IMG/VR virus record: IMGVR_UViG_3300018065_000012
Source: a virus
Taxonomy: Duplodnaviria; Heunggongvirae; Uroviricota; Caudoviricetes
Direction: 5' to 3' (one strand)
DNA: 64,000 nt
Under the pieces are notes generated by a model. That model searched no databases, had not been told where the DNA came from, and saw nothing but the letters and a program-made list of their open reading frames with translations. This document shows, in pieces, positions 136-51,015 of the stretch (position 1 is the stretch's first letter; the number at the start of each line of letters is the position of its first letter). The position numbers and the translations under genes were made by a program.

Positions 136-444
136 ATGGATGATAAAGAGATAGCTCAGGAGCTTTTGAGAACTGCTCAATTACTTATTAGCGGTATCCC
201 TTCTGCCGTTGCTAAAAAAAATCTTGCCAAGGCATATGCTTTGAAGATTGAGTCAGCAAAGAGTAAAGCGCCGATGAGACATCAGCAAAGGTTTCACGAC
301 AGATTTCAGAAATTATACGATAAGTTGTCTTCTAAGCATCCAGACGTAGACATGAATTCTGCTGGGTTTTGGGGATCACTTGAAAGGCATGCGAAGAAGT
401 GGTGGGACAGCAGGGGGATGAAAGGGCCATCTGTAGATTGGTAA
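136..444 (+). CDS. small protein, N-terminal ELLK-AK helix family (MDDKEIAQELLRTAQLLIS)
   Basis: ORF 94..444 trimmed to internal ATG preceded by gggaaa SD-like; N-terminal family motif. Confidence 0.55.
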   Translation: MDDKEIAQELLRTAQLLISGIPSAVAKKNLAKAYALKIESAKSKAPMRHQQRFHDRFQKLYDKLSSKHPDVDMNSAGFWGSLERHAKKWWDSRGMKGPSVDW

Positions 445-481
445 AAGTGAAAAGCGTCCTTTTCTTACAGGGATGGGGAAA

Positions 482-754
482 ATGAAGAAAGTGGCTTTTG
501 AGCTTTTGAAGATAGCAAAGCTTATGAACGCTGATGTGCAGGCGCCTTCAGTGCTTAAGAAGGGAACGAAGTTCACAGGCGAGGGAGGTATTGAGTTTGT
601 GGTGAAGGAGATTTGGGTAGGGATTCCTCAGCATAGTTTTACCAGTGACGGAATGACGTGGATAAGTTACAGCTACAAAATGCCAGAAGGTCGTAAGGGA
701 ACTGAGAAGAACACTTTGGAAAATTTCTTGAAGCTTGTTCGGCAGGGGAAGTAA
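482..754 (+). CDS. small protein, ELLK-AK family (MKKVAFELLKIAKLMNA); C-terminus paralogous to 5924..6448
   Basis: N-terminal motif; leader nearly identical to that of 136..444. Confidence 0.6.
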   Translation: MKKVAFELLKIAKLMNADVQAPSVLKKGTKFTGEGGIEFVVKEIWVGIPQHSFTSDGMTWISYSYKMPEGRKGTEKNTLENFLKLVRQGK

Positions 755-755
755 A

Positions 756-1214
756 ATGGAAAATACAAAAATCGCTGGTGAATTATTGAAGTTGGCTGGT
801 CAATTACTTGGGCCGGGAAAGCCGGACGGGACTGGGCCTGTTGGATTGGGTCGTAGGCGCAGGCGGCGAGAGCAGGAATGCGACGAAGACGGTTTTTACG
901 AGCCTATGAGCAATGAAGACGAATGTGAGGAGGCTGTTGCTCAGGAGATTTTGAAGGCTTCAAAGTTAGTAAACGCTACTGACGACAAAACAAAGGCTAA
1001 GATTGCGTTAAGGGCATTATCGAGGGCAACGACGCACATGGATAAGTTGGTTGATGAGTTGCATTATTCTCATCAAGAGTTTCCAGATTTAGGAACAAAG
1101 GGTTCAAGATTGAAAGCAAGACTAAAAAAGATTATGGAGGCTGCAAACAAGGTTCAGACGTTGAGTGCGATGTCTTACAGTGATTTGGAGTCATATTTGA
1201 AGGCGGTGAAGTAA
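756..1214 (+). CDS. small protein, ELLK-AK family (MENTKIAGELLKLAGQLLGPG)
   Basis: ATG at 756 after ggcaggggaag SD; family motif then Gly/Pro/Arg-rich linker. Confidence 0.65.
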   Translation: MENTKIAGELLKLAGQLLGPGKPDGTGPVGLGRRRRRREQECDEDGFYEPMSNEDECEEAVAQEILKASKLVNATDDKTKAKIALRALSRATTHMDKLVDELHYSHQEFPDLGTKGSRLKARLKKIMEAANKVQTLSAMSYSDLESYLKAVK

Positions 1215-1549
1215 TGGAAAACAAAAAAATAGCATCTGAGCTTTTGAAGTTGGCTAAGAGTTTGGTTGGGGTGCGCATAAACAAAAGCAGCATCAAAAAG
1301 AAATTGATGGCCAACGTAGTCAACAAGTTTACGGTAGTAGCTCCAGACGACAAAGAATTTGAATTTTCGACATCTGGGAGTTCAGCGGAAGGAATCAACG
1401 GTTATTTATTCCGCGATAAGACGCCTTGGGTAGAATGGGATTGTTACGACGATGGCGTAAAGAAGGCTTTGGGATTCAGAACAATAAGGATGATTTGGTC
1501 TGTGGCTAAGAACGGCGTATTGAAGCCTTTTGATATTACGTTCAAATAA
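1214..1549 (+). CDS. small protein, ELLK-AK family (MENKKIASELLKLAKSLVG)
   Basis: Family motif; 5' 57 nt ~90% identical to 1561..1617. Confidence 0.7.
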   Translation: MENKKIASELLKLAKSLVGVRINKSSIKKKLMANVVNKFTVVAPDDKEFEFSTSGSSAEGINGYLFRDKTPWVEWDCYDDGVKKALGFRTIRMIWSVAKNGVLKPFDITFK

Positions 1550-1560
1550 GGAAGAGTTCG

Positions 1561-1788
1561 ATGGAAAACGCAAAAATAGCATCTGAGCTTTTGAAGTTAG
1601 CAAAGAGTTTGGTTGGTCAGAAGGACTTGGATGTTCGCAAAGTGAAAGCTATTCGCAAGAAAGTGATAGAGGCTCGGAATGCCATATCGAACTTGAAGGG
1701 TGAGATTTCAAAGTCAGAAATAAACAAGTTGGATTCAGTGATGAAGCAGTTGGACAAGGCTGCTGAAGGTTTGTATTATTTCATATAG
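1561..1788 (+). CDS. small protein, ELLK-AK family (MENAKIASELLKLAKSLVG)
   Basis: Family motif; aggaag SD. Confidence 0.7.
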   Translation: MENAKIASELLKLAKSLVGQKDLDVRKVKAIRKKVIEARNAISNLKGEISKSEINKLDSVMKQLDKAAEGLYYFI

Positions 1789-1798
1789 GATTCTTGAA

Positions 1799-2020
1799 AT
1801 GAATGGAGTCGCTCTTGAACTTTTGAAAGTTGCTAAATTGGTAAAGGCTGGGGCGATTACTGACAAGGCAGAGCGGTTTGTAATGTCTGCTGATCACAGT
1901 TTTTCTTTAGCATTGGAAGGCATAGCAGAAGTCGCTACAAAGGCAAAGAAGCGTTCGATTGCCAATGCGATAACAAAGGCGGCGAAAGACGTACAGCGAT
2001 TGGAAGCGAAGGGGGAGTAA
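1799..2020 (+). CDS. small protein, ELLK-AK family (MNGVALELLKVAKLVKAG)
   Basis: Family motif variant. Confidence 0.6.
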   Translation: MNGVALELLKVAKLVKAGAITDKAERFVMSADHSFSLALEGIAEVATKAKKRSIANAITKAAKDVQRLEAKGE

Positions 2021-2451
2021 TGGAAAACAAAAAAGTCGCTCAAGAGCTTTTGAAGATTTCCAAGCTTTTGTCTGCCGGTTATCAGGATTGGGGTTTGCGT
2101 TGGAGCGAGTTTGACCGCAACGATCGCATAAAGACCAAGCAGAAGTTTTTCAAGGATGAAAAAGCGCGCAAGAAGTTCATTGACAAGCTGGAAAAGAAAG
2201 ATAACTTCAAGGGCGTTGAAAGTTATTCAGACCCAAAGACAGCGAAGGTTTTATCAGGAGCTTACAAAGACGATTTGGAGAAGATAATCGACAATCGTGG
2301 TTTGAAGAGCGTGATTGATACGATTGCGCAAATCTGTCATGACAAAGCGCAGCATGTAAGGGAGAATCAGCAAGACGAGCGTCGGGCGAAGTTGTGGGAA
2401 AAGGACGCAAAGCATTTGGAGCGTGCTCATCTCAAGCTTGAGAATTACTAA
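2020..2451 (+). CDS. small protein, ELLK-AK family (MENKKVAQELLKISKLLSAG)
   Basis: Family motif; ATG overlaps preceding stop (TAATG). Confidence 0.7.
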   Translation: MENKKVAQELLKISKLLSAGYQDWGLRWSEFDRNDRIKTKQKFFKDEKARKKFIDKLEKKDNFKGVESYSDPKTAKVLSGAYKDDLEKIIDNRGLKSVIDTIAQICHDKAQHVRENQQDERRAKLWEKDAKHLERAHLKLENY

Positions 2452-2461
2452 AGGATTTGAA

Positions 2462-2803
2462 ATGAAGAAAGTCGCCGTTGAACTTTTGAAGATGGCTAAG
2501 TTGTTAATCAGTGAAGAGCGTGAGGAGTTGATACAGTTTGCTAAGGACGTACAGAAGAAGTTGGAATCCAAGGCAAGGATGAGGTTTAAGCGTAAGACAG
2601 GAACATCCAGAAAGCCTTTCGTTGGTTTTGAGGTAAAGAATTGGCAGGATGAAGTGATTCCAAATGAAATTCGTGTATTGGTAGCAAAGACGCTTGGAGT
2701 TACGGGAGTGAAGAATTGGGACAATGTAAATTACGGAAATATTACGCCGCAGCGCATTGTTTTGAGAAAAGAGCAATGGGAAAAGGTTTTGAAAAAGCTA
2801 TAG
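2462..2803 (+). CDS. small protein, ELLK-AK family (MKKVAVELLKMAKLLISEE)
   Basis: Family motif at internal ATG of ORF 2423..2803. Confidence 0.65.
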   Translation: MKKVAVELLKMAKLLISEEREELIQFAKDVQKKLESKARMRFKRKTGTSRKPFVGFEVKNWQDEVIPNEIRVLVAKTLGVTGVKNWDNVNYGNITPQRIVLRKEQWEKVLKKL

Positions 2804-2816
2804 GGAGACTTTAGAA

Positions 2817-3353
2817 ATGAAAGACGTTGCGCGTGAGTTGATTATAGCCAAAATCATTCGGCGTACAAAACTAAATGAGGACGGCAGCGCAAGAGTAGAC
2901 AACAAAGGCGTTGCGAAAGAGCTTTTGAAGATAGCCAAACTTTTATCTGCTAAGCGTTACAATGTGATTGACAAAATAGGAGACTGGGAGTTAGCCATTG
3001 AAGTACGTTGGGGAGGTTTAGTTACACCTATCATATTGAAGGGTGGCAAAGAAGTAGATCAGTTAGCTCCCAATATGAGACAACCCGCAGCCAAGAGGGA
3101 GTTCAAGAAGTACGTTCAGAAGCACGGGAGAAGGGCTAAATCTTTTACAAGCAAGGAAGGCAAAAAAGGCGACAGGGTAAGGATTATCAAAAACAAAAAG
3201 CTTGAGAAAGAGATGCCCGGCATAATTGGGATGACTGGCGAGTTTGGCGGATATTCAAGCCGTGGTGCAAGGGTGAAAAACTTGACCAACAAAAGAGGAC
3301 GCGTTAGTTACGGGTTCACAGACGTTCCTTCGGATTCGATTGAGTTTATATAA
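2817..3353 (+). CDS. ELLK-AK family protein with two tandem N-terminal copies of the motif (MKDVARELIIAKII ... GVAKELLKIAKLLSAK)
   Basis: Motif duplicated within the same N-terminus. Confidence 0.65.
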   Translation: MKDVARELIIAKIIRRTKLNEDGSARVDNKGVAKELLKIAKLLSAKRYNVIDKIGDWELAIEVRWGGLVTPIILKGGKEVDQLAPNMRQPAAKREFKKYVQKHGRRAKSFTSKEGKKGDRVRIIKNKKLEKEMPGIIGMTGEFGGYSSRGARVKNLTNKRGRVSYGFTDVPSDSIEFI

Positions 3354-3364
3354 AGGATTTGGAT

Positions 3365-3601
3365 ATGGACAACAAAAAGGTTGCTCAAGAGTTGTTGAAG
3401 ATTGCAAAGGTTTTGAACGGCGCGGCAAGCGTGACGATGATTAACGCTTTGAAACGTTCGCTTGACAATTTGAAGAAGGTACAAAACATCGTAAAAAAAG
3501 ACCCAAAGCGTTATTGGGGAGCTTTGGAAGGACGTTTTGAAGAAATCGAGAAGAATACCAGAGAACTCTTGAAGTATTCTGTAGCGGGAACGAAGAAATG
3601 A
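3365..3601 (+). CDS. small protein, ELLK-AK family (MDNKKVAQELLKIAKVLNG)
   Basis: ATG 3365 with aagga SD 7 nt upstream; ORF table start 3359 is TTG. Confidence 0.65.
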   Translation: MDNKKVAQELLKIAKVLNGAASVTMINALKRSLDNLKKVQNIVKKDPKRYWGALEGRFEEIEKNTRELLKYSVAGTKK

Positions 3602-4677
3602 ATATAGTCACTGAGCTTAAAGTATTGCTTCAAAAACACAAAGCTGATAATTGGAAAAAGCTTTTGTTGGATTCCATTACTGAAGCAAAACAGAAAGCAA
3701 AGTTGGAAGGTTTGAGGGGAGCGGATAAGTTTCCTGTTGGTCTTGAAGGCAAAAATGGTTACTATGCCTATTTGGAAAAACTGGTAAAGTGGATTCCAAG
3801 GGAGAATTACGACGAGGAAGTGCTTTACCATTTGTGCGAATTTTATTGGCTGTTGAACCAGCCACCGGGAAAGAAGTTACAGAAGAGCAAAAGCTTCAAC
3901 AAGTGGATGCGTGATTTTGCAAATCAATGGGGCAGTTTTTTGAACACGGACGAATCTGCAAAAGACTTGCAAACCTTTGTTGATGATCCTGCTTTCAGGG
4001 CTGGCGATTACATGCCCAATCCGAGCGGTTGGAGAACGTTCAATCAATTTTTCGCAAGGGAAATCAAGCCGGGTTTGAGGCCGGTGGCAGGGATGTTTGA
4101 TGACAACATTGTATGTTCGTCTGCTGATTCGACATTCGTGCGGAAGTTCCCGATAGGCGAGGACAACGAAGTCGTCATAAAACTCACGCACAAATACAAA
4201 ATACTGGATTTGCTGGAAGGTAGTCCATATCAGGAGCGCTTCAAGGGTGGGATGTTCTATCATGCATTTTTGGGGCCGAATGATTATCACAGGTTTCGCG
4301 CTCCAGTACGTGGTACGGTTTTGGAGTGTCGCGCAATACAACAGAACGTTTATCTGCAAGTGAAAATCCAAGACGGCAAGTTTTCAGCTCCTGACGGGGC
4401 TGGATACGAGTTCACTCAAACGCGTGGTTTGATTGTATTCGACTCTCCAATTGGATTGGTAGCAGTATTGCCAATCGGAATGGCGCAGGTAAGCAGCGTC
4501 AATATGACGGCAGTGGTCGGGAGCTATCTTAATAAGGGTGAAGAGTTTGGTTACTTTATGTTTGGGGGTTCAGATATCATCATGTTGTTTGAAGAACAAA
4601 GCAACGTAGTGATTTCAGCGGCTCCGGGCGTCCACTACAATTGTGGAATGGCCATTGGCGAAACGGTGAGTGAATAG
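3598..4677 (+). CDS. phosphatidylserine decarboxylase-like (pyruvoyl-dependent) domain protein with a ~150-aa N-terminal extension carrying a weak family-like helix (MNIVTELKVLLQK)
   Basis: FLGPNDYHRFRAPVRGTV matches PSD GPxDYHRxH motif; FGGSDIIMLF resembles the LGST self-cleavage site. Confidence 0.5.
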   Translation: MNIVTELKVLLQKHKADNWKKLLLDSITEAKQKAKLEGLRGADKFPVGLEGKNGYYAYLEKLVKWIPRENYDEEVLYHLCEFYWLLNQPPGKKLQKSKSFNKWMRDFANQWGSFLNTDESAKDLQTFVDDPAFRAGDYMPNPSGWRTFNQFFAREIKPGLRPVAGMFDDNIVCSSADSTFVRKFPIGEDNEVVIKLTHKYKILDLLEGSPYQERFKGGMFYHAFLGPNDYHRFRAPVRGTVLECRAIQQNVYLQVKIQDGKFSAPDGAGYEFTQTRGLIVFDSPIGLVAVLPIGMAQVSSVNMTAVVGSYLNKGEEFGYFMFGGSDIIMLFEEQSNVVISAAPGVHYNCGMAIGETVSE

Positions 4678-4679
4678 CA

Positions 4680-5024
4680 ATGCGCCGAATGGGAGTTGCG
4701 GTACCATCAGAGAACAAAGGCGGCGACTGCTATCGAGCAGCGGGAACATATATTGTCGACAATGCATTTGGTAAAAATGGAGACAAATCATTGGTTCTTG
4801 TGCATGGAGAAGTAACCGGACAAGGGCCAATTGAGGGAGTCAAATACGGTCATGCTTGGGTTGAAAAAGGTGGCATGGTTATTGATAAATCAAACGACAG
4901 AGATATCAAGATGCCAAAAGCATTGTACTATGCATTGGGAAACATAAAGAAAACGGTTCGGTATACGTCGGAAGAAGTATTAGACAAAATAACAACGACA
5001 GAACATTGGGGACCATGGGACTGA
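4680..5024 (+). CDS. hypothetical protein (no family motif)
   Basis: 114-aa ORF tightly packed between neighbours. Confidence 0.5.
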   Translation: MRRMGVAVPSENKGGDCYRAAGTYIVDNAFGKNGDKSLVLVHGEVTGQGPIEGVKYGHAWVEKGGMVIDKSNDRDIKMPKALYYALGNIKKTVRYTSEEVLDKITTTEHWGPWD

Positions 5025-5116
5025 ACATGGCTACGAAAGAAATATTTAACAAGACAAGCAAGAAAAAGCAGCGAGTGCCTTCGCGATTACTTAAAAAACT
5101 TGAGGGGAAGAGAGCT

Positions 5117-5461
5117 ATGGAAAACAAAAAAGTAGCGGCTGAATTATTAAAGGTAGCGAGTCTTTTGTCGGCTGTGGACGTTGAGAAGATTCGTAAAGAC
5201 GCAATGAAGAATTATCAAAACGCTTTACAAAATGCGGTGAGGGCGATAAACAAATACGACCTTCATCGTACAGGGCTTGAGCTTGAATTAGCAAAGCGGT
5301 ATTTCAGAAAGGGCGGTATGGTTTTTGATATTCCAGCGCAAGAGACGTTGCGTCTGGTAGAGAAGGCAATGGCGTCTTTGAAAAAAGCAAGAGGCTTCAA
5401 AAGCAAGTTAGACGCTGAAATAAGCAATACGCGAGATTCTACACAACGAGCAATGCTGTAA
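5117..5461 (+). CDS. small protein, ELLK-AK family (MENKKVAAELLKVASLLSA)
   Basis: Internal ATG of ORF 5006..5461 preceded by ggggaagagagct; family motif. Confidence 0.6.
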   Translation: MENKKVAAELLKVASLLSAVDVEKIRKDAMKNYQNALQNAVRAINKYDLHRTGLELELAKRYFRKGGMVFDIPAQETLRLVEKAMASLKKARGFKSKLDAEISNTRDSTQRAML

Positions 5462-5572
5462 ATTCCTTTAAGGAGATTATGAGGTGGGACGTCAAACTGA
5501 AGCAGGAACGCTGGTTCGTTATGCGCGACAGATTATGGCCTTGGATGAGGAAATGACAGAGCACGAAAGAAG
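5458..5572 (+). repeat. dispersed direct repeat, copy 1 (partner 6859..6972; second segment 5880..5953 pairs with 6974..7047)
   Basis: ~90% identity including stop codon, SD and first 30 codons. Confidence 0.7.
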
Positions 5573-5927
5573 AGTGTTTGCCAAACAACTGTTAGTAGTG
5601 GCAAAACATCTTCAATGGAAGGCTTTACATAAAGCCGGAATAGATTTGAGCGGCGTAGACAAGAAAGCAATGAAGGCAATGGATGACGAATTGGACGTAG
5701 CGTTCAAAAGGGCTGAAGCCCGGAAAGAATTGGTAAATCAGATTCACGACGGGTTAAGTTTATTAGGCGACCTTGCGGAGAATCGTGGAGAAAAGAAATT
5801 AGCCTCAACGGTAAAACATAGTTGGAATCAACTTGAAAAGTTGGGAAAAGGGATACGTAGTGAGTTTGATAGGATTAAGCGGGAACAGTTGAGCGAAGAA
5901 ATCAAAGGCAAAAGGACAAAACAATGA
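5484..5927 (+). CDS. hypothetical protein; variant motif FAKQLLVVAKHL at residue ~32; full-length paralog of remnant 6884..7020
   Basis: GTG start with aaggag SD 7 nt upstream; ends ...EEIKGKRTKQ. Confidence 0.6.
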   Translation: MGRQTEAGTLVRYARQIMALDEEMTEHERRVFAKQLLVVAKHLQWKALHKAGIDLSGVDKKAMKAMDDELDVAFKRAEARKELVNQIHDGLSLLGDLAENRGEKKLASTVKHSWNQLEKLGKGIRSEFDRIKREQLSEEIKGKRTKQ

Positions 5928-6448
5928 GAAACAAAAAGTTAGCGGTTGAATTGGTAAAGGTAGCTAAGTTGTTGCTCGCAGCGGAACTTTCTGACGTAGC
6001 TTACGCTTTGGGAAAAGAATACGCTTATCGCTCAAAGCCTTCCAACAAAGAATATGCCGCGTTTGAAGCAACTCATACAAAGAAGCAAAGCAAGGCGTTG
6101 GATGATGCTGTTGGGCGTTTGGAACGGAAGGGAATCAAGGTCAAGAGTTTGAGTATTGAAGCGAAGAAAGTAAGGGATATTGAAAACCCCGTAGTGATAA
6201 TTTATTTGCCTGATTTGAAAAAAGAAATACCTTTGGAACTGCCAAACAAATTGGAGAAGGGGACGAAGTTTAGAGCAAGGGGTGGAACGAATATTGAAGT
6301 GAAGGGTGTTTGGATTAGCATTTTTCATGCGCGTCCAGAAAAATCATCCCCAAGAATTAAGTACAATTATAAAACGCCAGATGGAAAGTCGGGGACGGAA
6401 GAAAACACGTTGGTGAATTTCATTCGGTTGATCAAGCAAGGAGTTTGA
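5924..6448 (+). CDS. small protein, ELLK-AK family (MRNKKLAVELVKVAKLLLAA); C-terminal GTKF..GG..NTL.NF domain shared with 482..754
   Basis: Family motif; paralog of 7018..7437 at N-terminus. Confidence 0.7.
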   Translation: MRNKKLAVELVKVAKLLLAAELSDVAYALGKEYAYRSKPSNKEYAAFEATHTKKQSKALDDAVGRLERKGIKVKSLSIEAKKVRDIENPVVIIYLPDLKKEIPLELPNKLEKGTKFRARGGTNIEVKGVWISIFHARPEKSSPRIKYNYKTPDGKSGTEENTLVNFIRLIKQGV

Positions 6449-6449
6449 A

Positions 6450-6872
6450 ATGGAAAAGGTCGCTGCTGAACTAATCAAAATAGCAAAAAGCTTGCATAGA
6501 GCAAGAGCAATCTCAAGGTTTGCAAAAATCGATCAGTTTGGTAACGTTAAGATTGTTTGGATTTACCTTTTGCAGCATCAGGATGCTGCTTCGTGGGTTT
6601 GCAGTGACTTGCAAAAATTGGGCAGTATTATTGCAAATGAGAAAAACTCAGTCAAGAAAAAAGTTGAGGACGCTGTAGGAAGGGGAAGGATAGGGAGTAG
6701 TTCCGGTTCTTTGCAGTTGTTGCTTGGTAAGAATGCGCCGCGTTTTGAAGCGTGGATGGATTTTGATTTACAAGACGTTGCCGAAGACAAAGATGATTTG
6801 AAATTCATTGCAGCCGAAGCAATGGATGCAGTAGGAGAGATGAAGTTCAAGAAAGTAAGTAAATTCCTTTAA
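6450..6872 (+). CDS. small protein, ELLK-AK family (MEKVAAELIKIAKSL)
   Basis: Family motif. Confidence 0.65.
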   Translation: MEKVAAELIKIAKSLHRARAISRFAKIDQFGNVKIVWIYLLQHQDAASWVCSDLQKLGSIIANEKNSVKKKVEDAVGRGRIGSSSGSLQLLLGKNAPRFEAWMDFDLQDVAEDKDDLKFIAAEAMDAVGEMKFKKVSKFL

Positions 6873-6883
6873 GGAGAATATGA

Positions 6884-7020
6884 ATGGCACATCAAATTGA
6901 AGCAGGAACGCTGGTTCGTTATGCTCGGCAGATTATGGCATTGGATGAGGAAATGACCGAGCATGAAAGAAGGCGGGAACAGTTGAGTGATGAAATCAAA
7001 GGCAAGAGGACAAAACAATG
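6884..7020 (+). CDS. truncated paralog (45 aa) of 5484..5927 produced by ~306-nt in-frame internal deletion (MAHQIEAGTLVRYARQIMALDEEMTEHERR|REQLSDEIKGKRTKQ)
   Basis: DNA 6859..6972 and 6974..7047 repeat 5458..5572 and 5880..5953; reading frame preserved. Confidence 0.5.
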
Positions 7021-7437
7021 AGAAACAAAAAGTTAGCGGTTGAATTGATCAAGCTTGCAAGAGAACTTGTCGCAGAGGAAGTCGTTGATGATATGATGGG
7101 CAAGGTGGCTGACTTCTTGCATGAAAATCCAAAACCCTCAGATGACGATTTCCACGAATGGGCAGAAAAGGCAGGCGTGGATAAGCATGAAGCTGAAGCA
7201 GCGGCTTACAGGTTGGCAACCTTATTTGTTGAGTTTTGGAAAGACGGTCTTGCAAACAAGGAAGGCTTCAAAGAAGAAGACGCCGACCCTGAAGAATTGA
7301 AAATGGGCATTGAAATTGAGTACGAACATACGCCCAACCCAAAAGTATCAAAGCGTATTGCTTTGGACCATCTTGCAGAAATTTCTGATTATTATACGCG
7401 CCTTAAGAAAATGGAAGAGGAAGCAGGTGTAGAATGA
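7018..7437 (+). CDS. small protein, ELLK-AK family (MRNKKLAVELIKLARELVAEE)
   Basis: Family motif; 5' DNA near-identical to 5924 start. Confidence 0.7.
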   Translation: MRNKKLAVELIKLARELVAEEVVDDMMGKVADFLHENPKPSDDDFHEWAEKAGVDKHEAEAAAYRLATLFVEFWKDGLANKEGFKEEDADPEELKMGIEIEYEHTPNPKVSKRIALDHLAEISDYYTRLKKMEEEAGVE

Positions 7438-7997
7438 AAAAACTCGTGAGAGAACTTTTGAAGATTGCCGAGGTTATCCGTTTTACAAAGTGGAACAAGG
7501 ACGGGAGTATCGAACGAAAAGAAATTTGGGACGAACAAGCGGCAGCAAAAGAAATAGCAAAGGTCTCAAAATTGATTTCTGGCGCGTCGCTTGGACCCGG
7601 TTTCAAAAACACCTATCAAGGCTATGAATTTGTAAGAACCATACGCGCCAATAGAATGGCCAAGGGTAAGATATATGGAATGTCTTACAAGGGCGGCAAC
7701 CAAGGTCAAGACATAATTCGTTTGCTTGGCTATTCCGATGTGACTCCGAAATACGGAGATGGCGGAGTCGTCTTCAATACTTTGAAAGACGTCAAAAAGA
7801 AATATGGCGTGAAGAATATGAGAGAGCTTGAGAAAATCGACGATAAGTTGAACTTGCCATACGGTCACGGAATTTACATGTGGGTTGAAAGTTTGCCAAG
7901 CGGTTCCAAAGGTCCGTGGTATTATCCTTTCAATGGCCGTTGGTCCCGTGGAAGTGGCGCAGAAAAAATTACCTTTTGGGAAGTGAAAAAAGCATAA
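7434..7997 (+). CDS. small protein, ELLK-AK family (MKKLVRELLKIAEVIRF)
   Basis: Family motif; ATGA overlap with upstream gene. Confidence 0.65.
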   Translation: MKKLVRELLKIAEVIRFTKWNKDGSIERKEIWDEQAAAKEIAKVSKLISGASLGPGFKNTYQGYEFVRTIRANRMAKGKIYGMSYKGGNQGQDIIRLLGYSDVTPKYGDGGVVFNTLKDVKKKYGVKNMRELEKIDDKLNLPYGHGIYMWVESLPSGSKGPWYYPFNGRWSRGSGAEKITFWEVKKA

Positions 7998-8019
7998 ACA
8001 TTTAATGGAGCGTTAAATC

Positions 8020-8319
8020 ATGAACGACAAACAACTTGCGCAACGACTGTTAAAATTGGCTGGTTCGCTTTTGGGTCCGGGGATTCCCGATGGAACCGGG
8101 CCGATGGGTGGAACGCCCGAATGTCCAATGAGTAACGCCGTCGAGGAGCCTGTTGAAGCTGATCCCGTTGAGCAGATTCTTGAAAACCAAGAAGAAATCA
8201 TGGAAGAGCTGGATGAAATTGAAGATGTCTTGGACGTTCACCCACCAGAACATCATATGGCGGCTGAGCTGGTAAAGATTGCAAAGGAACTTATCAAAGA
8301 GGGAAAGGACGATGCCTGA
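8020..8319 (+). CDS. ELLK-AK family protein with motif at both ends (N-terminal MNDKQLAQRLLKLAGSLLGPG; C-terminal MAAELVKIAKELIKEGKDDA)
   Basis: Motif at both termini; GPG.PDGTGP linker as in 756..1214. Confidence 0.65.
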   Translation: MNDKQLAQRLLKLAGSLLGPGIPDGTGPMGGTPECPMSNAVEEPVEADPVEQILENQEEIMEELDEIEDVLDVHPPEHHMAAELVKIAKELIKEGKDDA

Positions 8320-8671
8320 ATTTCTCAATCCGTTTCAAGTGAAAGACCTTGGTCGCCCAATGAATTTGCGCGAATTACAACGGGCGCTTCGGCAATCTAT
8401 TGCGGCTGAAGAAGAAGCGGTTCACTTGTATGAAGCTTATGCGGATGCTTCTGAATTGCAATATGTTAAAAAGGTTTTTCAAGACATTGCTGACGAAGAA
8501 AAAGTTCATGTGGGAGAATTTCAAGAATTGTTGAATCGTTTTGATTCAGGGGAACGTGAATTTCTTGAAGAGGGCGCGGACGAAGTTCAAGAGATGTTAT
8601 CTGAAGACGTCATTGCTTCAAGGGTTGCTAAAGCATTCATTGCCGGGCGTGCCGAAGATTTAGAGATTTAG
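8312..8671 (+). CDS. small acidic protein with two E-x-x-H motifs (EEEAVHLYEAY ... DEEKVHVGEF), ferritin/rubrerythrin-like four-helix candidate
   Basis: Paired ExxH motifs ~35 aa apart; ATG overlaps upstream stop. Confidence 0.4.
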   Translation: MPEFLNPFQVKDLGRPMNLRELQRALRQSIAAEEEAVHLYEAYADASELQYVKKVFQDIADEEKVHVGEFQELLNRFDSGEREFLEEGADEVQEMLSEDVIASRVAKAFIAGRAEDLEI

Positions 8672-8717
8672 TTATGGAAGTAATTGAATCCAGAGGAGAA
8701 AAGGTTTGGAGCAAGAA

Positions 8718-9095
8718 ATGAAAATAGCTTCTGAATTGCTAAAGATCGCAAAGCTATTGACGGCTAAATACAAAGTCGAAAAATGGTACTTCATGCGTAT
8801 GCCGCGAGGGAGGATGCGGCAGAAGCAAGTACGTTGGACGTTGTCGGTAGACCTCGATTGGTCTGACGAAGCGCACGGAAAACATCCTTCACAAGATTAT
8901 AAAGAAAAAGAGATGCTTGAAGAAACATACAGGTCAGATAAGTCAACAATAAGAACGTTTGCAAAAATTGGCAGGAACATCATAACGATTCCCGGTGATT
9001 TTGAATTGCGTATGAAATTTGAGATCAAGGTTCCAATGGATAAAACAAACGAAGCAACAAGAAAGCTTGAAGCATTAGGATACAAACGACTATGA
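8718..9095 (+). CDS. small protein, ELLK-AK family (MKIASELLKIAKLLTAK)
   Basis: ATG 8718 with ggag SD; family motif. Confidence 0.65.
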   Translation: MKIASELLKIAKLLTAKYKVEKWYFMRMPRGRMRQKQVRWTLSVDLDWSDEAHGKHPSQDYKEKEMLEETYRSDKSTIRTFAKIGRNIITIPGDFELRMKFEIKVPMDKTNEATRKLEALGYKRL

Positions 9096-10114
9096 ACGTC
9101 TTGAATGAGTTGAAAACAATCAACGCGTTACTTGCCCGTCGGGTAACGGGGGCAAGCGAACGTGAAAAGAATCAAAAGCTGGATAAGATTTATCGTAGCT
9201 TGCCCAACGCAGGATTCTCCGAAAAGATAACTAACAAGGATATTGTTGAATTCACATTGCGAGACGAAAGGGTTGAAATATTACCAGCGACGTACAAACT
9301 CAAAAAGTATCCTGTTGTTTTCTTTTGGGATAGAGACAGACTTCCAAGACAAGATACGCCATTTGATCTCAAGGTTGGTTTCACAGATAAAGAAGGCAAG
9401 GCAAACGGTACTTTTGTTGTCAAGCTTACTTACCGCAACGGAAAGGTTGAACTTTGTCAAGCTTGGAAAGGTGGAGTTGGGCGTTTGCTCAAAGCAATCC
9501 GTGACGAGTATTTTTTCTTTGACGCACGCGCTGGAGAATCGCATTATATAAAACAGAAAAAACTTCAGAATCTTGTAGAAGGATTTTTGAACGTTGTCGC
9601 GAGAAATTTCAACGCATGGTATGGCAGGCAAATTGATAAATACGAAGCGCTGGAAAAGGCAATCGACGGATTACCAAAAACGGAAGTTCAAGAGTTTTTC
9701 AAGAAGAAAAGACAAATTCGAAAGGATGGCTTTTACGTTTATAGATTGTCGGAGAAGGAACTCATCAATGATTTCATGACAGATTTCAATAAGGTTGTTT
9801 CCGGAATCCGTCACGACAAAAGTAAGAATCCATTGAAGTATCAAGCGATGAATTTGGTTCCTTCTGAATTTCACAACATATTGGATAGATTGAGCGACAG
9901 GCAATTGAAAGAATTGATCCCTTCTTTGGTCAAGCACCGGCCAATGAAGATTATTTTGGATAGCAAATCGACGCCACAAGGCCGTCAGACGGGTAGCGCT
10001 TTTTATGTGAACGTTAACCCAAAAGATATGATGGGCGAAGGGAAAGCTTCTGTAAGGCATAAGGGAAACGTGTTTGCTTACCGCCGATGGGACGAATATT
10101 CAAAGGCAATGTAA
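9092..10114 (+). CDS. hypothetical 340-aa protein with weak family-like N-terminal helix (MNVLNELKTINALLARR)
   Basis: Long ORF, ATGA overlap upstream. Confidence 0.6.
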   Translation: MNVLNELKTINALLARRVTGASEREKNQKLDKIYRSLPNAGFSEKITNKDIVEFTLRDERVEILPATYKLKKYPVVFFWDRDRLPRQDTPFDLKVGFTDKEGKANGTFVVKLTYRNGKVELCQAWKGGVGRLLKAIRDEYFFFDARAGESHYIKQKKLQNLVEGFLNVVARNFNAWYGRQIDKYEALEKAIDGLPKTEVQEFFKKKRQIRKDGFYVYRLSEKELINDFMTDFNKVVSGIRHDKSKNPLKYQAMNLVPSEFHNILDRLSDRQLKELIPSLVKHRPMKIILDSKSTPQGRQTGSAFYVNVNPKDMMGEGKASVRHKGNVFAYRRWDEYSKAM

Positions 10115-10539
10115 TGGATATTGACCGTATAGCAGAAAGAATAGTTGTTGCTCAACGCTTCCAAGAGGTTGAAACCGCCTTGAACGGTGTATTGAACAAT
10201 TTGGAGCGTATCCGTTTGTTAGAGAGGGAAACGATCAAATTGCCAACTGCTTCAACGCAGTTTGAAGTTTTGATCGTTCTATTAAAAAAGTTGAAACAGA
10301 TTTCCGGTATGTATGCAGCAAGAAATAAAAACAAACCAGAGTTGAAAGAGTTGGTAAGACAAGCCGGTTGGACTTATGGGGCTTCAAAGAAGGCAGAGAA
10401 GTTGGTCAATGAATTTTTGGCAAAGCGTGATAACTATTATCAACAGGTCAAGAAGTTACGCGAAGGGTTGAACCAACAGGATGAAAGCTTGACCCGCGAA
10501 CTATATGATTTGTTCAGAAGAGTGGAGGCAGGGAAATAA
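10114..10539 (+). CDS. hypothetical coiled-coil protein
   Basis: ATG in TAATG overlap with upstream stop. Confidence 0.5.
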   Translation: MDIDRIAERIVVAQRFQEVETALNGVLNNLERIRLLERETIKLPTASTQFEVLIVLLKKLKQISGMYAARNKNKPELKELVRQAGWTYGASKKAEKLVNEFLAKRDNYYQQVKKLREGLNQQDESLTRELYDLFRRVEAGK

Positions 10540-10650
10540 TGGCGTGGATAGCTTTGACGTTTGTTGTCTTATTTGTTCTTACTGCGACGTCTTTGAACAG
10601 AAAGATAAAGAGAGCAATTGACGATCTTGAAGATTTTTGAGGGGAAAGCA

Positions 10651-11418
10651 ATGGAGCGGATTGCGAAAGAGCTTTTGAAGATTGCGAAACAAATACAGTC
10701 CGGCGCAACAGGTTTTTCCAAATTCGGAAAAGGCACTGACGCCAAAAGAGTGTTTCGCGATTTGCAAGAAGCGGCAAGAAGGGAATATGGCGAGGACCGT
10801 TACAGCGGGACGATCGGCGCTAAGGATAGTTTCAAACTTGTAGCTGAGCCAATGCCCTTGAAGGGCGCACAAGAAGTAGCAAGAAAGATGGGCGACAAGG
10901 CTGATAAATGGGGACCAGCGTTTGGCGTTCCTGTTGTGGGGGAAAGCAAAGGCAGATTGAAGGACGTTAAGAAAGCCGTCAAATCAAAAAGCAGTAGGGA
11001 GGCAGTTGAAGCATTGAATCAAATGCTAAACGAAAGATACAAAGGGTTTGTTTGGGAATGGGAAACCAAACCTAAAGTGGAATTGTTGAAAGGTTCTGCG
11101 ATTACCTTCAAGACGCAGAAAGGGGCAAAGCCAGCGGTTGTTTACAAAACCTTAACGTACAAAGAATATCCTACGTTGAAAGAAGCAGTTGACGCAACAG
11201 AAGCTCATATCAAGACGGCTATTCAAGAAAATTGGCGTTTGCAAAAAGAATATCCAATCACCGCCGAAGTATCAAACGCTACAAGAGTTGCGGCCAAAGT
11301 TACATTTGATTTCAGAAGCAAAGAGGGAAACAAGTATCAAGTAAGTGGTAAAATCAAGGTATCGAAACCAAGCAAGAAAATAATTGGGTATTTTTTCTTT
11401 GGCGAAGCGCCAACGTAA
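10651..11418 (+). CDS. ELLK-AK family protein, 255 aa (MERIAKELLKIAKQIQSG)
   Basis: Internal ATG 10651 preceded by gaggggaaagca. Confidence 0.65.
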   Translation: MERIAKELLKIAKQIQSGATGFSKFGKGTDAKRVFRDLQEAARREYGEDRYSGTIGAKDSFKLVAEPMPLKGAQEVARKMGDKADKWGPAFGVPVVGESKGRLKDVKKAVKSKSSREAVEALNQMLNERYKGFVWEWETKPKVELLKGSAITFKTQKGAKPAVVYKTLTYKEYPTLKEAVDATEAHIKTAIQENWRLQKEYPITAEVSNATRVAAKVTFDFRSKEGNKYQVSGKIKVSKPSKKIIGYFFFGEAPT

Positions 11419-11426
11419 AGGCCGGG

Positions 11427-11597
11427 ATGATGACAAAATTACAGATGAGATCAATTCACGACAAGCTTGACGCAATGGGGAAGCTGTTTAAGAAAACAAG
11501 CGAAACGATTGACGCAAATATACAACGGCTTGAGAAGAACGAAACGAACGACTTGAGCTGCGCGAGCGAACGACTTGAATCTACAACGAAGAAGTAA
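11427..11597 (+). CDS. possible small coiled-coil protein (56 aa)
   Basis: Unlisted ORF filling an otherwise empty gap; no strong SD. Confidence 0.3.
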   Translation: MMTKLQMRSIHDKLDAMGKLFKKTSETIDANIQRLEKNETNDLSCASERLESTTKK

Positions 11598-11609
11598 GGA
11601 GGTTTACTT

Positions 11610-11858
11610 ATGGCGAAGTTTGATTATAGTGCTATGTATGATCCCAAGAATGCATTTCCAAAACGTCTTCCAAATGTATCTTCGGAAGCAGCGGCAGATA
11701 AAGGAGTATTAGTGATTGGGATTCCAAATGATAGTACGGTTGCCGTTGACGATGCGAAGGAATATTGGAATGGTGGAAATTTGATGGCAGTTTATGGAAT
11801 CTCTGTCGACATTGTTTACTATGCGCGTACAGGAAATTTGAATCAATTTTTACCGTAA
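11610..11858 (+). CDS. hypothetical protein
   Basis: Strong SD taaggagg 7 nt upstream. Confidence 0.65.
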   Translation: MAKFDYSAMYDPKNAFPKRLPNVSSEAAADKGVLVIGIPNDSTVAVDDAKEYWNGGNLMAVYGISVDIVYYARTGNLNQFLP

Positions 11859-11859
11859 A

Positions 11860-11910
11860 GGTCATTTAAGGCTCCTGCCCGTCGATTCGCCTTCTCCCTT
11901 CTCCGATGAG
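11860..11910 (+). other. perfect 11-bp GC-rich inverted repeat (ggctcctgccc / gggcaggagcc) with 29-nt loop; possible terminator or RNA/protein-binding structure
   Basis: Seen directly; no U-tract follows. Confidence 0.35.
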
Positions 11911-11942
11911 GGCAGGAGCCTCTCCCCTTTCTGGAGTTTGCT

Positions 11943-12356
11943 GTGAAGACTGTAGCAAAAGAATTATTGAAAGTAGCTAAATTGCTTACAAGCGGAAAAG
12001 TAAGAGTCAGAACGCAGACTCCTGACGTTGAATTGGATGATGTTGAATTGATTCAGCGGGTAAAAAGCTACGGTAAAGACGCACAATCATCTTATGGGTT
12101 GTTCGTAAGAGCACGCGGTTTGAGGCCGAAGATCAACATGAAGAAGTTTAGGGAGATTTGGGATTCAGTATCGCCCAACAAGCATGAAAAAGTGGAAACA
12201 GTTGATTTCAAACCTACGCACAAATCAAAGGATGTTGAAGGTTTGACTATTATGGTGACGCAAGTTGAACCAAATATAGTGCGTTTCATATCAAGTTATG
12301 GCGGTACTGGATCAAGCCCAGCTGGGCTTTTCAAAAGTCAGTACAAAAAAATCTGA
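11943..12356 (+). CDS. small protein, ELLK-AK family, GTG start (VKTVAKELLKVAKLLTSG)
   Basis: Family motif; ggag 8 nt upstream of GTG. Confidence 0.6.
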   Translation: MKTVAKELLKVAKLLTSGKVRVRTQTPDVELDDVELIQRVKSYGKDAQSSYGLFVRARGLRPKINMKKFREIWDSVSPNKHEKVETVDFKPTHKSKDVEGLTIMVTQVEPNIVRFISSYGGTGSSPAGLFKSQYKKI

Positions 12357-12373
12357 ACCCAAGGGAACAGCGA

Positions 12374-12571
12374 ATGGCCGTTGAAGCAACAAGGCAAAAA
12401 ATCTTATTGGAGATCAAAAGGCTACGTCCGGATTTTCCAGATACTACAATCAGACAATGGGTTGATGACTTTTTGAAAGCAGTTAAAAATGCAGATTTGG
12501 AATTGGTAGTAGGCCGGAAGACGAAAACAAAGATTGTACTTCCGAAAAATATTATTAACAGAAGGAGATGA
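12374..12571 (+). CDS. hypothetical small protein
   Basis: aaggga SD 7 nt upstream. Confidence 0.5.
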   Translation: MAVEATRQKILLEIKRLRPDFPDTTIRQWVDDFLKAVKNADLELVVGRKTKTKIVLPKNIINRRR

Positions 12572-12573
12572 AG

Positions 12574-12732
12574 ATGAGAAAAATGAAGCACCCAAGGTGC
12601 AGCCGTGGATTACACGACTATCAGAAAATAAACCAGTACATGAAAGAATGCAAGAACTGCGAGAAGCGCGTAAGAATTGGATTTGATATTCGCAAAAACA
12701 AGATCAGCAATATAGGAAGAAAAAGACGATGA
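12574..12732 (+). CDS. possible 52-aa basic Cys-containing peptide
   Basis: Unlisted ORF with aggag SD 6 nt upstream. Confidence 0.3.
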   Translation: MRKMKHPRCSRGLHDYQKINQYMKECKNCEKRVRIGFDIRKNKISNIGRKRR

Positions 12733-12816
12733 GAAAGAGCGGAAAAGGCAGACGAAAAATAGGTAAGAAGAAACGTCTTGCGAGAAGAAAAGCCCGCAAC
12801 AAGAAATGAGGTAACT

Positions 12817-13323
12817 GTGCCCGAACAGAAACCAAAATCAAAAGAAAACAATACGACGGTACTGACGAAAAGCGGCGTAGTTAAGAAGGTTTTGCTTGCT
12901 GTGATTACCGGCGCTGTCGGAACTGCCTTTGCTGGGATTGTTTGGGTTTGTGGAACGGTTTTGACGCTTCAAAAGGATATGACCACAACGAAAGCGAGTG
13001 TGGAATCAACGGCAAAAATGATTGAGGAACGTTTCAAAGAGCGCCCTGATGATATGGCAATTTGGGAACAGTTGCACAAACATGCAGGAGAGATTAAGGA
13101 ATTGCAAATTAAGGATGCGTTTAAGGACGGACGTTGGGAAGGAATACATAAGAGAAAAATAGAGCACCCTATTCCAGAACCAGATGACGAGGAAGCTATA
13201 GAAAAACCAGAACCAAAAGAAAACGGAGACGATACGAGATCATTTCGAGAAAAACACATGCGTCCTTGGATTCAACAACAGCAAGCAAACGAACCACCGC
13301 TTATGTTGAATAGGAAAAAATGA
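12817..13323 (+). CDS. single-pass membrane protein (TM helix VKKVLLAVITGAVGTAFAGIVWVCGTVL)
   Basis: GTG start after gaggt; hydrophobic segment. Confidence 0.5.
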   Translation: MPEQKPKSKENNTTVLTKSGVVKKVLLAVITGAVGTAFAGIVWVCGTVLTLQKDMTTTKASVESTAKMIEERFKERPDDMAIWEQLHKHAGEIKELQIKDAFKDGRWEGIHKRKIEHPIPEPDDEEAIEKPEPKENGDDTRSFREKHMRPWIQQQQANEPPLMLNRKK

Positions 13324-13344
13324 AAATTATAAAGGATGATCAAA

Positions 13345-13611
13345 ATGAAAAACAAAGGAGTATCGTCGAAACAGGCGTATCACTTGCTCTGTCTCATCAG
13401 GCGAAATTCTTTGAACTTGGGGGGTAAGGAAAAGTTTGCGGTCATAAAGCATTTGGAAAAGATGGCAAAACCATATATAGAAAAACACGTAAGCCATGAA
13501 GAAGTTCAACTTGGAGAATTGTCAAAGCAAATTAGTTACTTGGCGGGGATTGTTCAAAACGTGAGAACGAATCTGGAACAAAAAAATGGAAAAGTCAAAA
13601 CGCATGAATGA
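13345..13611 (+). CDS. hypothetical protein
   Basis: aaagga SD 8 nt upstream of second ATG. Confidence 0.5.
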   Translation: MKNKGVSSKQAYHLLCLIRRNSLNLGGKEKFAVIKHLEKMAKPYIEKHVSHEEVQLGELSKQISYLAGIVQNVRTNLEQKNGKVKTHE

Positions 13612-13828
13612 AAAACAAATTGCTACAAGAATTGCAAAAAGGCTTTTAGCTGATCCCGTAGTTGATAATTACGCAATTGAACTTCAAAAGGCTTCAGACA
13701 AGTTGGAGAATATTTCGAAGAAGGTGCGGTCAAAATCAATAGCTGATTTCAATAAACAGAAAGCAAAACGGTCACTCAAACAATTGAAGCTTGTCCTTGG
13801 ATTATTAACTTCAAATTTCAAGGTGTAA
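13604..13828 (+). CDS. hypothetical small protein with degenerate helix motif (IATRIAKRLLADP)
   Basis: ATGAATGA overlap. Confidence 0.45.
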   Translation: MNEKQIATRIAKRLLADPVVDNYAIELQKASDKLENISKKVRSKSIADFNKQKAKRSLKQLKLVLGLLTSNFKV

Positions 13829-13832
13829 AACG

Positions 13833-14390: not shown

Positions 14391-14559
14391 TTACGATGAC
14401 TCGAAATACTGTAATTTATTTGGAGTTGAAAAACGTTGCAGACACTTACATGTGAAACGTGGAAGGTGTAAACGGTTGAAAAAGGATTTGGAAAAAGGAA
14501 TTCTCGGTCTGTGCAGAGTCGTTGAATGCCAAAAGAGAAAATTGAGGGAATACAAATGA
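14365..14559 (+). CDS. possible small Cys-containing protein
   Basis: Overlaps both neighbours; weak. Confidence 0.3.
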   Translation: MERTAVEINYDDSKYCNLFGVEKRCRHLHVKRGRCKRLKKDLEKGILGLCRVVECQKRKLREYK

Positions 14560-49131: not shown

Positions 49132-49134
49132 TTT

Positions 49135-49157: not shown

Positions 49158-49200
49158 CAATTGATAGAAAGCATTGTACATATATTCGGGAGAGCGACAG

Positions 49201-51011: not shown

Positions 51012-51015
51012 GATC

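Follow-up and report, generated by a model that had tools for sequence, protein, structure and literature searches.

What does a short helix do for a phage that has attached it to many of its proteins, at the front of most, at the end of others and in the interior of a few? The question is raised by a stretch of 64,000 nucleotides (nt), here called the window, from a virus of the Caudoviricetes (IMG/VR record IMGVR_UViG_3300018065_000012), and in particular by its gene 2817..3353, whose product opens with what a preliminary description of the locus took for two tandem copies of a helical motif. The peptides quoted in that description are all present where it placed them. The motif, referred to below as the tag, is a portable amphipathic α-helix of some 16 residues found in a single clade of huge phages, and we put at roughly one in two the probability that it acts as a position-independent label that targets cargo proteins to the procapsid.

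A conserved, amphipathic and portable helix

The tag follows the consensus [KK][VIL]-A-x-E-L-[LVI]-K-[ILV]-A-K-x-L-h-[AGS], or KKVAxELLKIAKxLxA in its short form. A position-specific scoring matrix of 16 columns, built from the copies of the motif in the window and applied with a cut-off of at least 12 bits, finds 28 matches on the plus strand of the window and none on the minus strand. Among the products of ATG-initiated open reading frames the matches number 27, whereas 200 shuffles of the proteins yield 0.085 on average and never more than 2. Synonymous sites vary freely from copy to copy, the DNA of any two being mostly 60–80% identical, and selection therefore acts on the peptide. When the window is pooled with related loci, 116 distinct copies are obtained: about 85 are N-terminal, defined by a methionine three to six residues ahead of the alanine, about 18 are C-terminal and about 13 internal, a few of the last being probably N-terminal copies with alternative start codons. 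Across these more than 100 copies, Ala4, Ala11 and Leu7 are 90–96% invariant and Glu6 71%; information content is high at A4, E6, L7, A11 and L14, and drops to background level right past column 16.

The consensus describes an amphipathic α-helix, with a hydrophobic moment of 0.51–0.56 that peaks at 100°, a mean hydrophobicity of about 0.1 and a net charge of +1 to +3. Its hydrophobic face is made up of V3, A4, L7, L8, I10, A11, L14 and V15, with the two near-invariant alanines in the centre. Because small and acidic residues are near-invariant, the sequence points to a particular protein as the partner rather than to lipid. Much of the preliminary description is borne out at this point. The modularity and position independence that it proposed are seen in the spread of copies over both termini and the interior, in the unrelated domains that carry them and in proteins with two or three copies. 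Its doubt that an N-terminal signal peptide could be at work is upheld by the C-terminal and internal copies. The amphipathicity analysis that it called for gives a moment of about 0.5 with the helical peak at 100°, in agreement with the helices modelled by AlphaFold2, and its suggestion of an interaction or oligomerisation helix fits a predicted amphipathic helix that may stand at any position on unrelated domains.

The focal gene and its neighbours

In 2817..3353 itself, only the second of the two copies originally described (residues 30–45, 40.8 bits) stands as an intact tag. The first is degenerate: it scores below 12 bits, is one residue short of the consensus (ARELI-IAKII), and has lost its amphipathicity (hydrophobic moment 0.23 vs. 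about 0.5). It is recognisable only because the paralogue 7434..7997 keeps an intact first copy followed by the same R-x-TK-x-N-x-DGS linker; the pattern of decay is reversed between the two genes, while the linker is common to both. A search of 5.8 billion proteins for homologues of 2817..3353 returned only the protein itself, and its AlphaFold2 model is poor, with a predicted local distance difference test score (pLDDT) of 52.

The 99-residue product of 8020..8319 had been credited with a tag at each end, and both are there (32.7 and 30.6 bits). AlphaFold2 models it as three helices, at residues 3–18, 49–71 and 79–98, with a GPG-rich disordered stretch between the first two (pLDDT 71). Its family includes four related proteins (P0012, P0019, P0024 and P0026), and a linker of the form GPGxPDGTGPxG(L)G(RRQRRR) is common to all of them, occurring in the window at 8074..8110 and 810..850. 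This linker, we presume, resembles the DGTGP motif of DUF5320 small proteins.

These genes belong to an array, 136..16441, in which one or more tags at or above the cut-off are present in 23 of the 34 genes (Table 1), and which in an independent assembly starts about 200–900 nt upstream of the window. The array holds a recent duplication (5458–5964 vs. 6859–7058, 91–96% identical at the nucleotide level, with an internal deletion), whose right-hand end falls within the tag codons of the downstream genes 5924.. and 7018... With this breakpoint inside the tag codons, tags can serve as recombination joints. Recombination between dispersed copies, which had been offered as one explanation for their placement, thus has one clear example. 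The internal deletion reduces a 147-residue gene (5484..5927) to one of 45 residues (6884..7021).

Authenticity of the C-terminal copies

Since position independence leans on the copies at C-termini, it matters that these are not frame artefacts produced by mis-called stops, an outcome that the preliminary description had allowed for. Such artefacts are excluded. An independent ENA assembly matches the window without difference over 13,353 nt, 8020..8671 included. In 13833..14390, a single copy had been placed at the C-terminus, where it is indeed found (31.5 bits); the orthologue P0082, 88% identical and of equal length, ends in ...RRKISAELIKVAKILIGETTSGD with the stop conserved and only conservative changes in the tag. 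Two further matches to this protein (P0083 and L018) cover just its first 60 residues and are without the tag; in L018 this segment recurs at 4066..4551, beside the protease, with a different and untagged C-terminal part. A search for loci related to 13833..14390 in IMG/VR and the phage collection was empty. The doubly tagged family supplies independent instances: P0019 (76 residues) and P0024 (80 residues) have the architecture of 8020..8319, namely an N-terminal tag with A-G for A-K, GPGxPDGTGP, an acidic linker and a C-terminal tag. Tags at both ends are found also in P0017, P0059, P0069 and P0072, and two or three copies in P0012, P0026, P0038, P0041, P0044 and P0055. A fourth C-terminal copy in the window begins at nt 50958, in 50814..51011.

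The C-terminal tag of 8020..8319 was also considered as a frameshifted N-terminal tag of the next gene, 8312..8671, which encodes an EncFtn-family half-ferritin and is translationally coupled to 8020..8319. The idea was rejected, because the EncFtn orthologues in L098, L099 and L100 begin at the same place with a methionine of their own, because the EncFtn ATG overlaps the upstream stop (ATGCCTGA) and is preceded by a GAGG ribosome-binding site of its own, and because the independent assembly is identical and P0019 and P0024 also end in a tag.

Proteins that carry the tag

The domains on which the tag sits are unrelated to one another: EncFtn, a CCA-adding enzyme, a 2H phosphoesterase, LPD29, DUF5661 and DUF7007. 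The EncFtn protein 8312..8671 has as its best relatives in the PDB the Pyrococcus furiosus encapsulated ferritin 5n5e (1.6e-13), the encapsulin–EncFtn fusion 2e0z of the same species, and the Myxococcus encapsulin cargo proteins EncC and EncB. Its homologues are tagged in several ways, with a canonical N-terminal tag in L020 and a fusion of EncFtn upstream of the tag in L098, while in L099, as in the window, the C-terminus is a degenerate tag-like helix. Eggerthella phage LE2-3, an isolate with a related capsid, has an EncFtn domain within a 948-residue protein encoded between the portal and capsid genes. Ferritins of the encapsulated kind, like encapsulin cargo proteins, are known only within HK97-fold shells (PMC8346489).

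The CCA-adding enzyme 14939..16441 bears a weak N-terminal tag, and tblastn matches to its phage homologues start near residue 27; its orthologue in L031 is tagged as well (16.8 bits). In relatives, the domains found on tagged proteins include a 2H-SAK phosphoesterase, where the tag is C-terminal, as well as LPD29 and DUF7007 (L019, 2521 region; L036, 3481; L047, 2558), and DUF5661 is found on the tagged window gene 7018..7437. LPD29 belongs to the domains of polyvalent proteins, for which entry together with phage or plasmid DNA is predicted (PMC5512222). A tagged protein of 274 residues (L015/P0063) has an HExxH motif.

Restriction to one capsid clade

The major capsid protein of the window shares 70% identity with its counterpart in LR745208.1, an uncultured phage of 485 kb, 49% with that of Tunturi_5 and 38% with that of Bacillus phage G. 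The same sequence as in the window also recurs within a contig that spans at least 338 kb, and the window therefore belongs to a huge phage. When loci are sorted by the capsid protein, the tag turns up only in huge phages with a capsid protein that shares about 79% identity or more with the window's own. At the 12-bit cut-off, clade A loci (capsid protein about 79–98% identical; 608 kb) give 106 matches on the plus strand and none on the minus strand, with fewer at a cut-off of 14 bits. Clade B loci (about 70% identical; 247 kb) and LR745208.1 (70% identical; 100 kb) give none on either strand, LR745208.1 being unlike the window in composition and gene content as well. The head region of Tunturi_5 has neither the tag nor a scaffold annotation.

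The same boundary emerges when the capsid gene is left out of the search. A degenerate DNA pattern for A-x-ELLK[IVM]AK-x-L, scanned over IMG/VR, retrieved contigs with several N-terminal copies each (MDNKKVAxELLKxAKSLVA). The multi-copy contigs all belong to the same capsid clade, and four contigs from the scan also rank among the closest capsid-protein relatives of the window. In 596 Gb of cellular genomes, the same pattern gave only single, non-terminal chance matches and no clusters. A profile of 20 N-termini from the window, run against 1.84 billion representative proteins, matched 71 proteins at E ≤ 1e-3; a tblastn search of phages with a 20-residue tag gave zero matches, and a profile search of a word-indexed collection gave eight, all weak. 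No published description of the motif was found in literature searches over 8 million full texts, which included peptide strings. The tag is retained across related contigs of 37–57% G+C.

Around the tag, accessory genes are very plastic even between the closest relatives. L018 has a capsid protein 98% identical to the window's own and still differs strongly in its portal-to-capsid gene content from the corresponding stretch 49000..59500. In relatives, the tag often runs straight into a repeated module, [IM][DE]FPT[QD]xAxDKYxKEHPxADKSxH, present up to three times per protein (L045, 3267–4700; L055, 3537 and 4400; L072, 1103; P0038, P0044 and P0055). In a Pfam scan, the DFPTQDAxDKY module and most of the window's cargo proteins were without a match.

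The tag in the head module

The tag is also found among the genes for head assembly. The interval from the portal gene to the capsid gene contains three to six tagged genes, both in the window and in its relatives, and in L020 a run of ten tags comes straight after the capsid gene. In many clade A loci, a small syntenic acidic protein encoded 2.3–2.9 kb upstream of the capsid gene ends in the tag, one example being ...NWPVSEADK-LKVAKKLVALAKDLLAD-stop. The gene order in these loci is the tag-ended small protein, an acidic coiled-coil protein, a very acidic protein of 330–470 residues, a protein of 165 residues and then the capsid gene. In the window, L018 and L020 the small acidic and coiled-coil proteins are fused, and the tag there is internal and weaker. 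The module also encodes a head maturation protease with a clade-specific C-terminal tail. Its protease-annotated homologues, in Tunturi_5 and Gordonia phage Pupper, cover only residues 49–265, and sequence searches found no relative of it in the PDB. The C-termini of the protease and of the scaffold-like protein resemble the tag motif (RVAxxxL); they score from below zero to about 5 bits and were not counted as tags.

Two large and highly charged head-module proteins, 45635..47941 and 49201..50439, share a tag-like helix followed by W-x-K-T-x-TKNKEGLPGWKDxxTGxVRYQ. A helix of the form KV-x-SAA...FLG is common to 45635..47941 and 56650..57864.

A proposed label for loading the procapsid

How might a single helix serve proteins so different in fold, size and position? 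On the reading that we favour, at about even odds, the hydrophobic face of the tag would dock on a common receptor within the assembling head. Candidates for this receptor are the HK97-type capsid protein, through its inner surface, and the scaffold core; the scaffold-like protein of the phage bears the same putative docking helix, at its C-terminus or internally. Any protein with a tag, at whichever end or in its interior, would be built into the procapsid, and the small doubly tagged proteins may bridge two sites and so serve as mini-scaffolds. The cargo would comprise the EncFtn ferritin, RNA-repair enzymes, polyvalent-protein domains and many small uncharacterised proteins. It may be freed afterwards by the head protease, as A-x-E, the cleavage motif of the gp21-type protease in SPN3US (PMC7411985), is present in every canonical tag, and it could then either stay in the head or leave with the DNA. 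The preliminary description had left out capsid targeting, the option that context favours.

The steps of procapsid binding, packaging, cleavage and ejection that we infer here are suggested by several features taken together. A single conserved helix is attached to unrelated folds, whether at either terminus or internally, and the same domain, EncFtn, is tagged in differing ways. The context is that of head assembly, with a syntenic scaffold-like protein, tagged genes in the head module and a protease present, and the tag is limited to phages with closely related capsid proteins. The type of cargo points in the same direction, consisting as it does of EncFtn, LPD29, 2H-SAK and a CCA-adding enzyme that is tagged in two phages.

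Several observations weigh on the other side. A distance of 40 kb separates the main array (0–15 kb) from the head genes, and the array resembles a block of small early genes. The EncFtn protein 8312..8671 is itself without a canonical tag, and tag-less EncFtn-like genes occur in other viral contigs (L100–L104). The scaffold-borne copies lack Glu6, having K, R or S at that position, and could be a related but functionally distinct helix, and the copy in the window's own scaffold-like protein is weak (8.8 bits). The scaffold-like proteins match no Pfam or PHROG family, their probable identity being read from position and composition. Finally, there is no conservation past tag column 16, so that no cleavage site is defined, and a cut at A-x-E would fail to remove most of the helix from cargo tagged at the N-terminus.

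Other possible roles for the helix

An alternative that shares some ground with procapsid loading is that the tags stick to one another, bundling as homo- or hetero-oligomeric coiled coils and gathering proteins in a cytoplasmic assembly or condensate other than the capsid, where a network would be built from proteins with two or three tags and joined by single-tag clients. The multivalent architectures are what such a network would need, with tags at both ends flanking acidic linkers and some proteins bearing 2–4 copies, and alanine centred on the hydrophobic face with heptad spacing suits a bundle, as do the three helices modelled in 8020..8319. Microcompartment encapsulation peptides are reported to cause aggregation and condensation (PMC7221423, PMC12339742). 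Self-association leaves unexplained, however, why the helix is on a syntenic scaffold-like protein beside the capsid gene and why tagged genes are interspersed in the head module. It also overlaps with procapsid loading, inasmuch as the scaffold core could be that very assembly, and as a separate explanation we think it unlikely. A more improbable proposal is that the helix binds or disrupts membranes, in the manner of KLAK and antimicrobial peptides or of a MinD/FtsA-like anchor, and takes proteins to the host membrane. Its amphipathicity, its net charge of +1 to +3 and a moment of about 0.5 peaking at 100° would allow this, as would its placement at N- or C-termini, since known membrane-targeting helices may sit at either. 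The array even contains a phosphatidylserine decarboxylase gene, but that enzyme is itself untagged. Near-invariant Ala4, Ala11 and Leu7 together with a conserved acidic Glu6 would not be expected for lipid binding, moment and hydrophobicity are merely moderate, and the tagged set includes soluble nucleic-acid enzymes, a ferritin and very acidic head-module proteins. The membrane-active KLAK-type peptide of the preliminary description accordingly fares poorly, given 71–96% invariance at Ala4, Glu6, Leu7 and Ala11, a moment of only about 0.5 and the occurrence of the motif on head-assembly proteins.

That the tag is a recognition element for some hub protein of host or phage, whether as a degron read by an AAA+ protease, as a helix bound by chaperones or as a signal for secretion, and controls the stability or delivery of early proteins, has similarly long odds. 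It would account for a mostly terminal helix, possible at either end, on many small and fast-evolving genes of one block; it accommodates less well the internal and repeated copies and the copies on scaffold-like head proteins, and the helix is short, charged and too little hydrophobic to resemble known signal peptides. Least credible of all is the absence of any common function, the tag then being an inheritance left over from the expansion of one paralogous family or a side effect of recombination at a 5′ gene segment common to these genes. Paralogue pairs and the recent duplication, with one breakpoint within a tag, show the kind of event required, and A-rich codons after the ATG may merely favour translation. 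Yet the tag is on unrelated domains (EncFtn, nucleotidyltransferase-HD, 2H, LPD29, DUF5661 and DUF7007), it is retained at the protein level with varied codons, and it is kept at the C-terminus of a diverged orthologue and across contigs that range in composition from 37 to 57% G+C.

Comparison with known targeting peptides

By analogy the tag would belong with the targeting and encapsulation peptides, yet it matches no known one in sequence. Among its closest known analogues is the capsid targeting sequence (CTS) of phage T4, the sole conserved feature of its highly diverse internal proteins, which it guides into the core of the prohead and from which the prohead protease removes it (PMC3012670, PMC7411985). 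As with the CTS of IPI–III and Alt, a short peptide is common to diverse proteins, a head protease gene is present and A-x-E occurs in the tag; the tag, too, is on unrelated, fast-evolving proteins of variable loci. The two differ in that the CTS is strictly N-terminal, about 10–20 residues long and removed, whereas the tag is also C-terminal, internal or repeated, and in that the tag is on many more genes (23 of 34 in one block). To our knowledge, the CTS sequence has no evident resemblance to the tag.

Encapsulin targeting peptides, mostly C-terminal and sometimes N-terminal, load EncFtn cargo into an HK97-fold shell, and those of Family 1 have a SDGSLGIGSLKRS-like consensus, TVGSL (PMC8346489). 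Here, too, one finds a terminal peptide and cargo of the EncFtn/Flp class (8312..8671, 1.6e-13, with a tagged homologue in L020), but KKVAxELLKIAKxLxA is without a GSL core. The encapsulin consensus peptide is extended and Gly/Ser-rich, and is not an amphipathic helix. The shell moreover belongs to a real phage, with terminase, portal and protease in the window, rather than from a cellular operon, and cargo types number dozens rather than one to a few. A further close analogue is offered by the encapsulation peptides of bacterial microcompartments (BMCs), amphipathic helices of about 18 residues that form an independent module at either terminus (PMC4594438). Helix length (about 15–20 residues) and amphipathicity are alike. 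The microcompartment peptides are set off from their domain by a linker of poor conservation; tags occur at both termini, and their conservation ends past column 16. The microcompartment peptides, however, are unconserved and bind BMC-H/T shell tiles, whereas the tag is strongly conserved; the tag's linker is often very short or absent, some copies, such as that in 13833..14390, continuing directly into a helix or domain. No BMC shell family turned up in general scans of the window proteins that were scanned.

The C-terminal helices of phage scaffolds (P22 gp8; the 80alpha scaffold and SaPI CpmB) bind capsid protein, and in 80alpha/SaPI a second protein shares the helix. The likeness here lies in a syntenic acidic protein, scaffold-like in position and composition, which is encoded beside the capsid gene and ends in the tag. 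We know of no P22- or 80alpha-type scaffold helix that is shared with dozens of non-structural proteins. Polyvalent proteins combine conflict and RNA-repair domains (PMC5512222), and LPD29 and 2H-SAK are on tagged proteins; but theirs is one giant polypeptide, while here the proteins are small and separate, each with its own tag. KLAK peptides are likewise Lys/Leu/Ala-rich amphipathic helices, and the tag departs from them in its conserved glutamate, invariant alanines and moderate moment, and in lying always within larger proteins.

Consequences of the proposed procapsid loading

If tagged proteins are loaded into the head, this would be the largest natural repertoire known of proteins targeted to a capsid, a single genome encoding more than 25 within 16 kb, and the targeting peptide would be able to act from either protein end or from within. 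It would give a handle for predicting which uncharacterised proteins of huge phages reach the host, would link phage heads and encapsulins through a common cargo class (EncFtn), and would offer a 16-residue tag usable for packaging foreign proteins. One might go further and suppose, tentatively and as something we would not bet on, that the clade turned the capsid-binding helix of its scaffold into a universal and position-independent loading tag for dozens of head-packed proteins. The head would then contain ferritin, tRNA/RNA-repair enzymes, polyvalent domains and small, probably anti-defence proteins, and the capsid would be both an encapsulin-like container and a multi-effector injection device. 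In functional terms, such a phage would be a living intermediate that joins phage capsids to encapsulins, and its helix would be a natural programmable packaging tag. Should the tag instead be an oligomerisation or membrane helix, it would still be a clade-wide organising principle that takes in about two thirds of the genes of the block.

Table 1. Positions in the window of the tagged proteins, their tags and the associated head genes
Feature	Position (nt)	Strand	Score or detail
Tagged-gene array	136..16441	+	23/34 genes with at least one tag of at least 12 bits
Array tag starts, first half	145, 485, 765, 930, 1223, 1570, 1802, 2029, 2465, 2904, 3374, 5126	+	
Array tag starts, second half	5933, 6453, 7027, 7437, 8029, 8251, 8718, 10654, 11946, 14322, 14559, 14939	+	
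Paralogue of 8020..8319: N-terminal tag, GPGKPDGTGP, acidic linker, internal tag, 78 more residues	756..1214	+	tags nt 765-812 and 930-977
Focal gene, 178 residues: degenerate first helix, R-x-TK-x-N-x-DGS linker, canonical second tag, unassigned domain	2817..3353	+	
Degenerate tag copy 1 of 2817..3353, KDVARELIIAKIIRRT / KDVARELIIAKIIRR	2820..2864	+	<12 bits
Canonical tag copy 2 of 2817..3353, residues 30–45, KGVAKELLKIAKLLSA	2904..2951	+	40.8 bits; hydrophobic moment 0.51
Paralogue of 2817..3353	7434..7997	+	first tag intact, nt 7437-7484, 23.8 bits; second degenerate, nt 7536-7583, 9.9 bits
Bivalent tag protein, 99 residues: N-terminal tag (AG variant), GPGxPDGTGP, acidic helix, C-terminal tag	8020..8319	+	
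N-terminal tag of 8020..8319, KQLAQRLLKLAGSLLG	8029..8076	+	32.7 bits; AlphaFold2 helix 3–18
C-terminal tag of 8020..8319, HHMAAELVKIAKELIK	8251..8298	+	30.6 bits; AlphaFold2 helix 79–98
EncFtn-family half-ferritin, degenerate tag-like C-terminus VIASRVAKAFIAG	8312..8671	+	Pfam Rubrerythrin 1.4e-10
185-residue protein, C-terminal tag only, RKISTELIKIAKILIG	13833..14390	+	tag nt 14322-14369, 31.5 bits, six residues before stop
CCA-adding/poly(A) polymerase-HD enzyme, weak N-terminal tag MNVSSELQKIATLLVT	14939..16441	+	13.6 bits; Pfam
Large terminase	41303..43117	+	
Portal	43686..45638	+	
Charged 768-residue protein after portal gene, internal tag KAIADEYIRIAKSFVA	45635..47941	+	tag nt 46067-46114, 17.2 bits
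Head-module protein, 65 residues, ends in tag RKLAKELLSIANLLLG-E-stop	50814..51011	+	tag nt 50958-51005, 33.4 bits
Head-module protein, N-terminal tag	51428..51868	+	tag nt 51440-51487, 32.4 bits
Head maturation protease, clade-specific C-terminal tail of ~55 residues	52263..53228	+	phrog_18299 2.3e-14
Head-module protein, N-terminal tag	53647..53940	+	tag nt 53653-53700, 36.1 bits
Acidic coiled-coil scaffold-like protein, internal degenerate tag TKVSRQLLQLAAAITN	55908..56615	+	tag nt 56256-56303, 8.8 bits
Major capsid protein, HK97 type; marker of the tag-bearing clade, candidate receptor	58639..59508	+	phrog_2522 4.3e-54

Other features of the window

All convincing genes of the window but one are on the plus strand, and GC skew is positive throughout. 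Auxiliary enzyme genes encode the phosphatidylserine decarboxylase (3598..4677) and an NrdD-like anaerobic ribonucleotide reductase (60139..62151). The sole convincing minus-strand gene, 55304..55675, encodes a helix–turn–helix (HTH)/XRE-like protein of 123 residues; it adjoins the scaffold-like gene on its upstream side and has a counterpart at 6656..7036 of L018.

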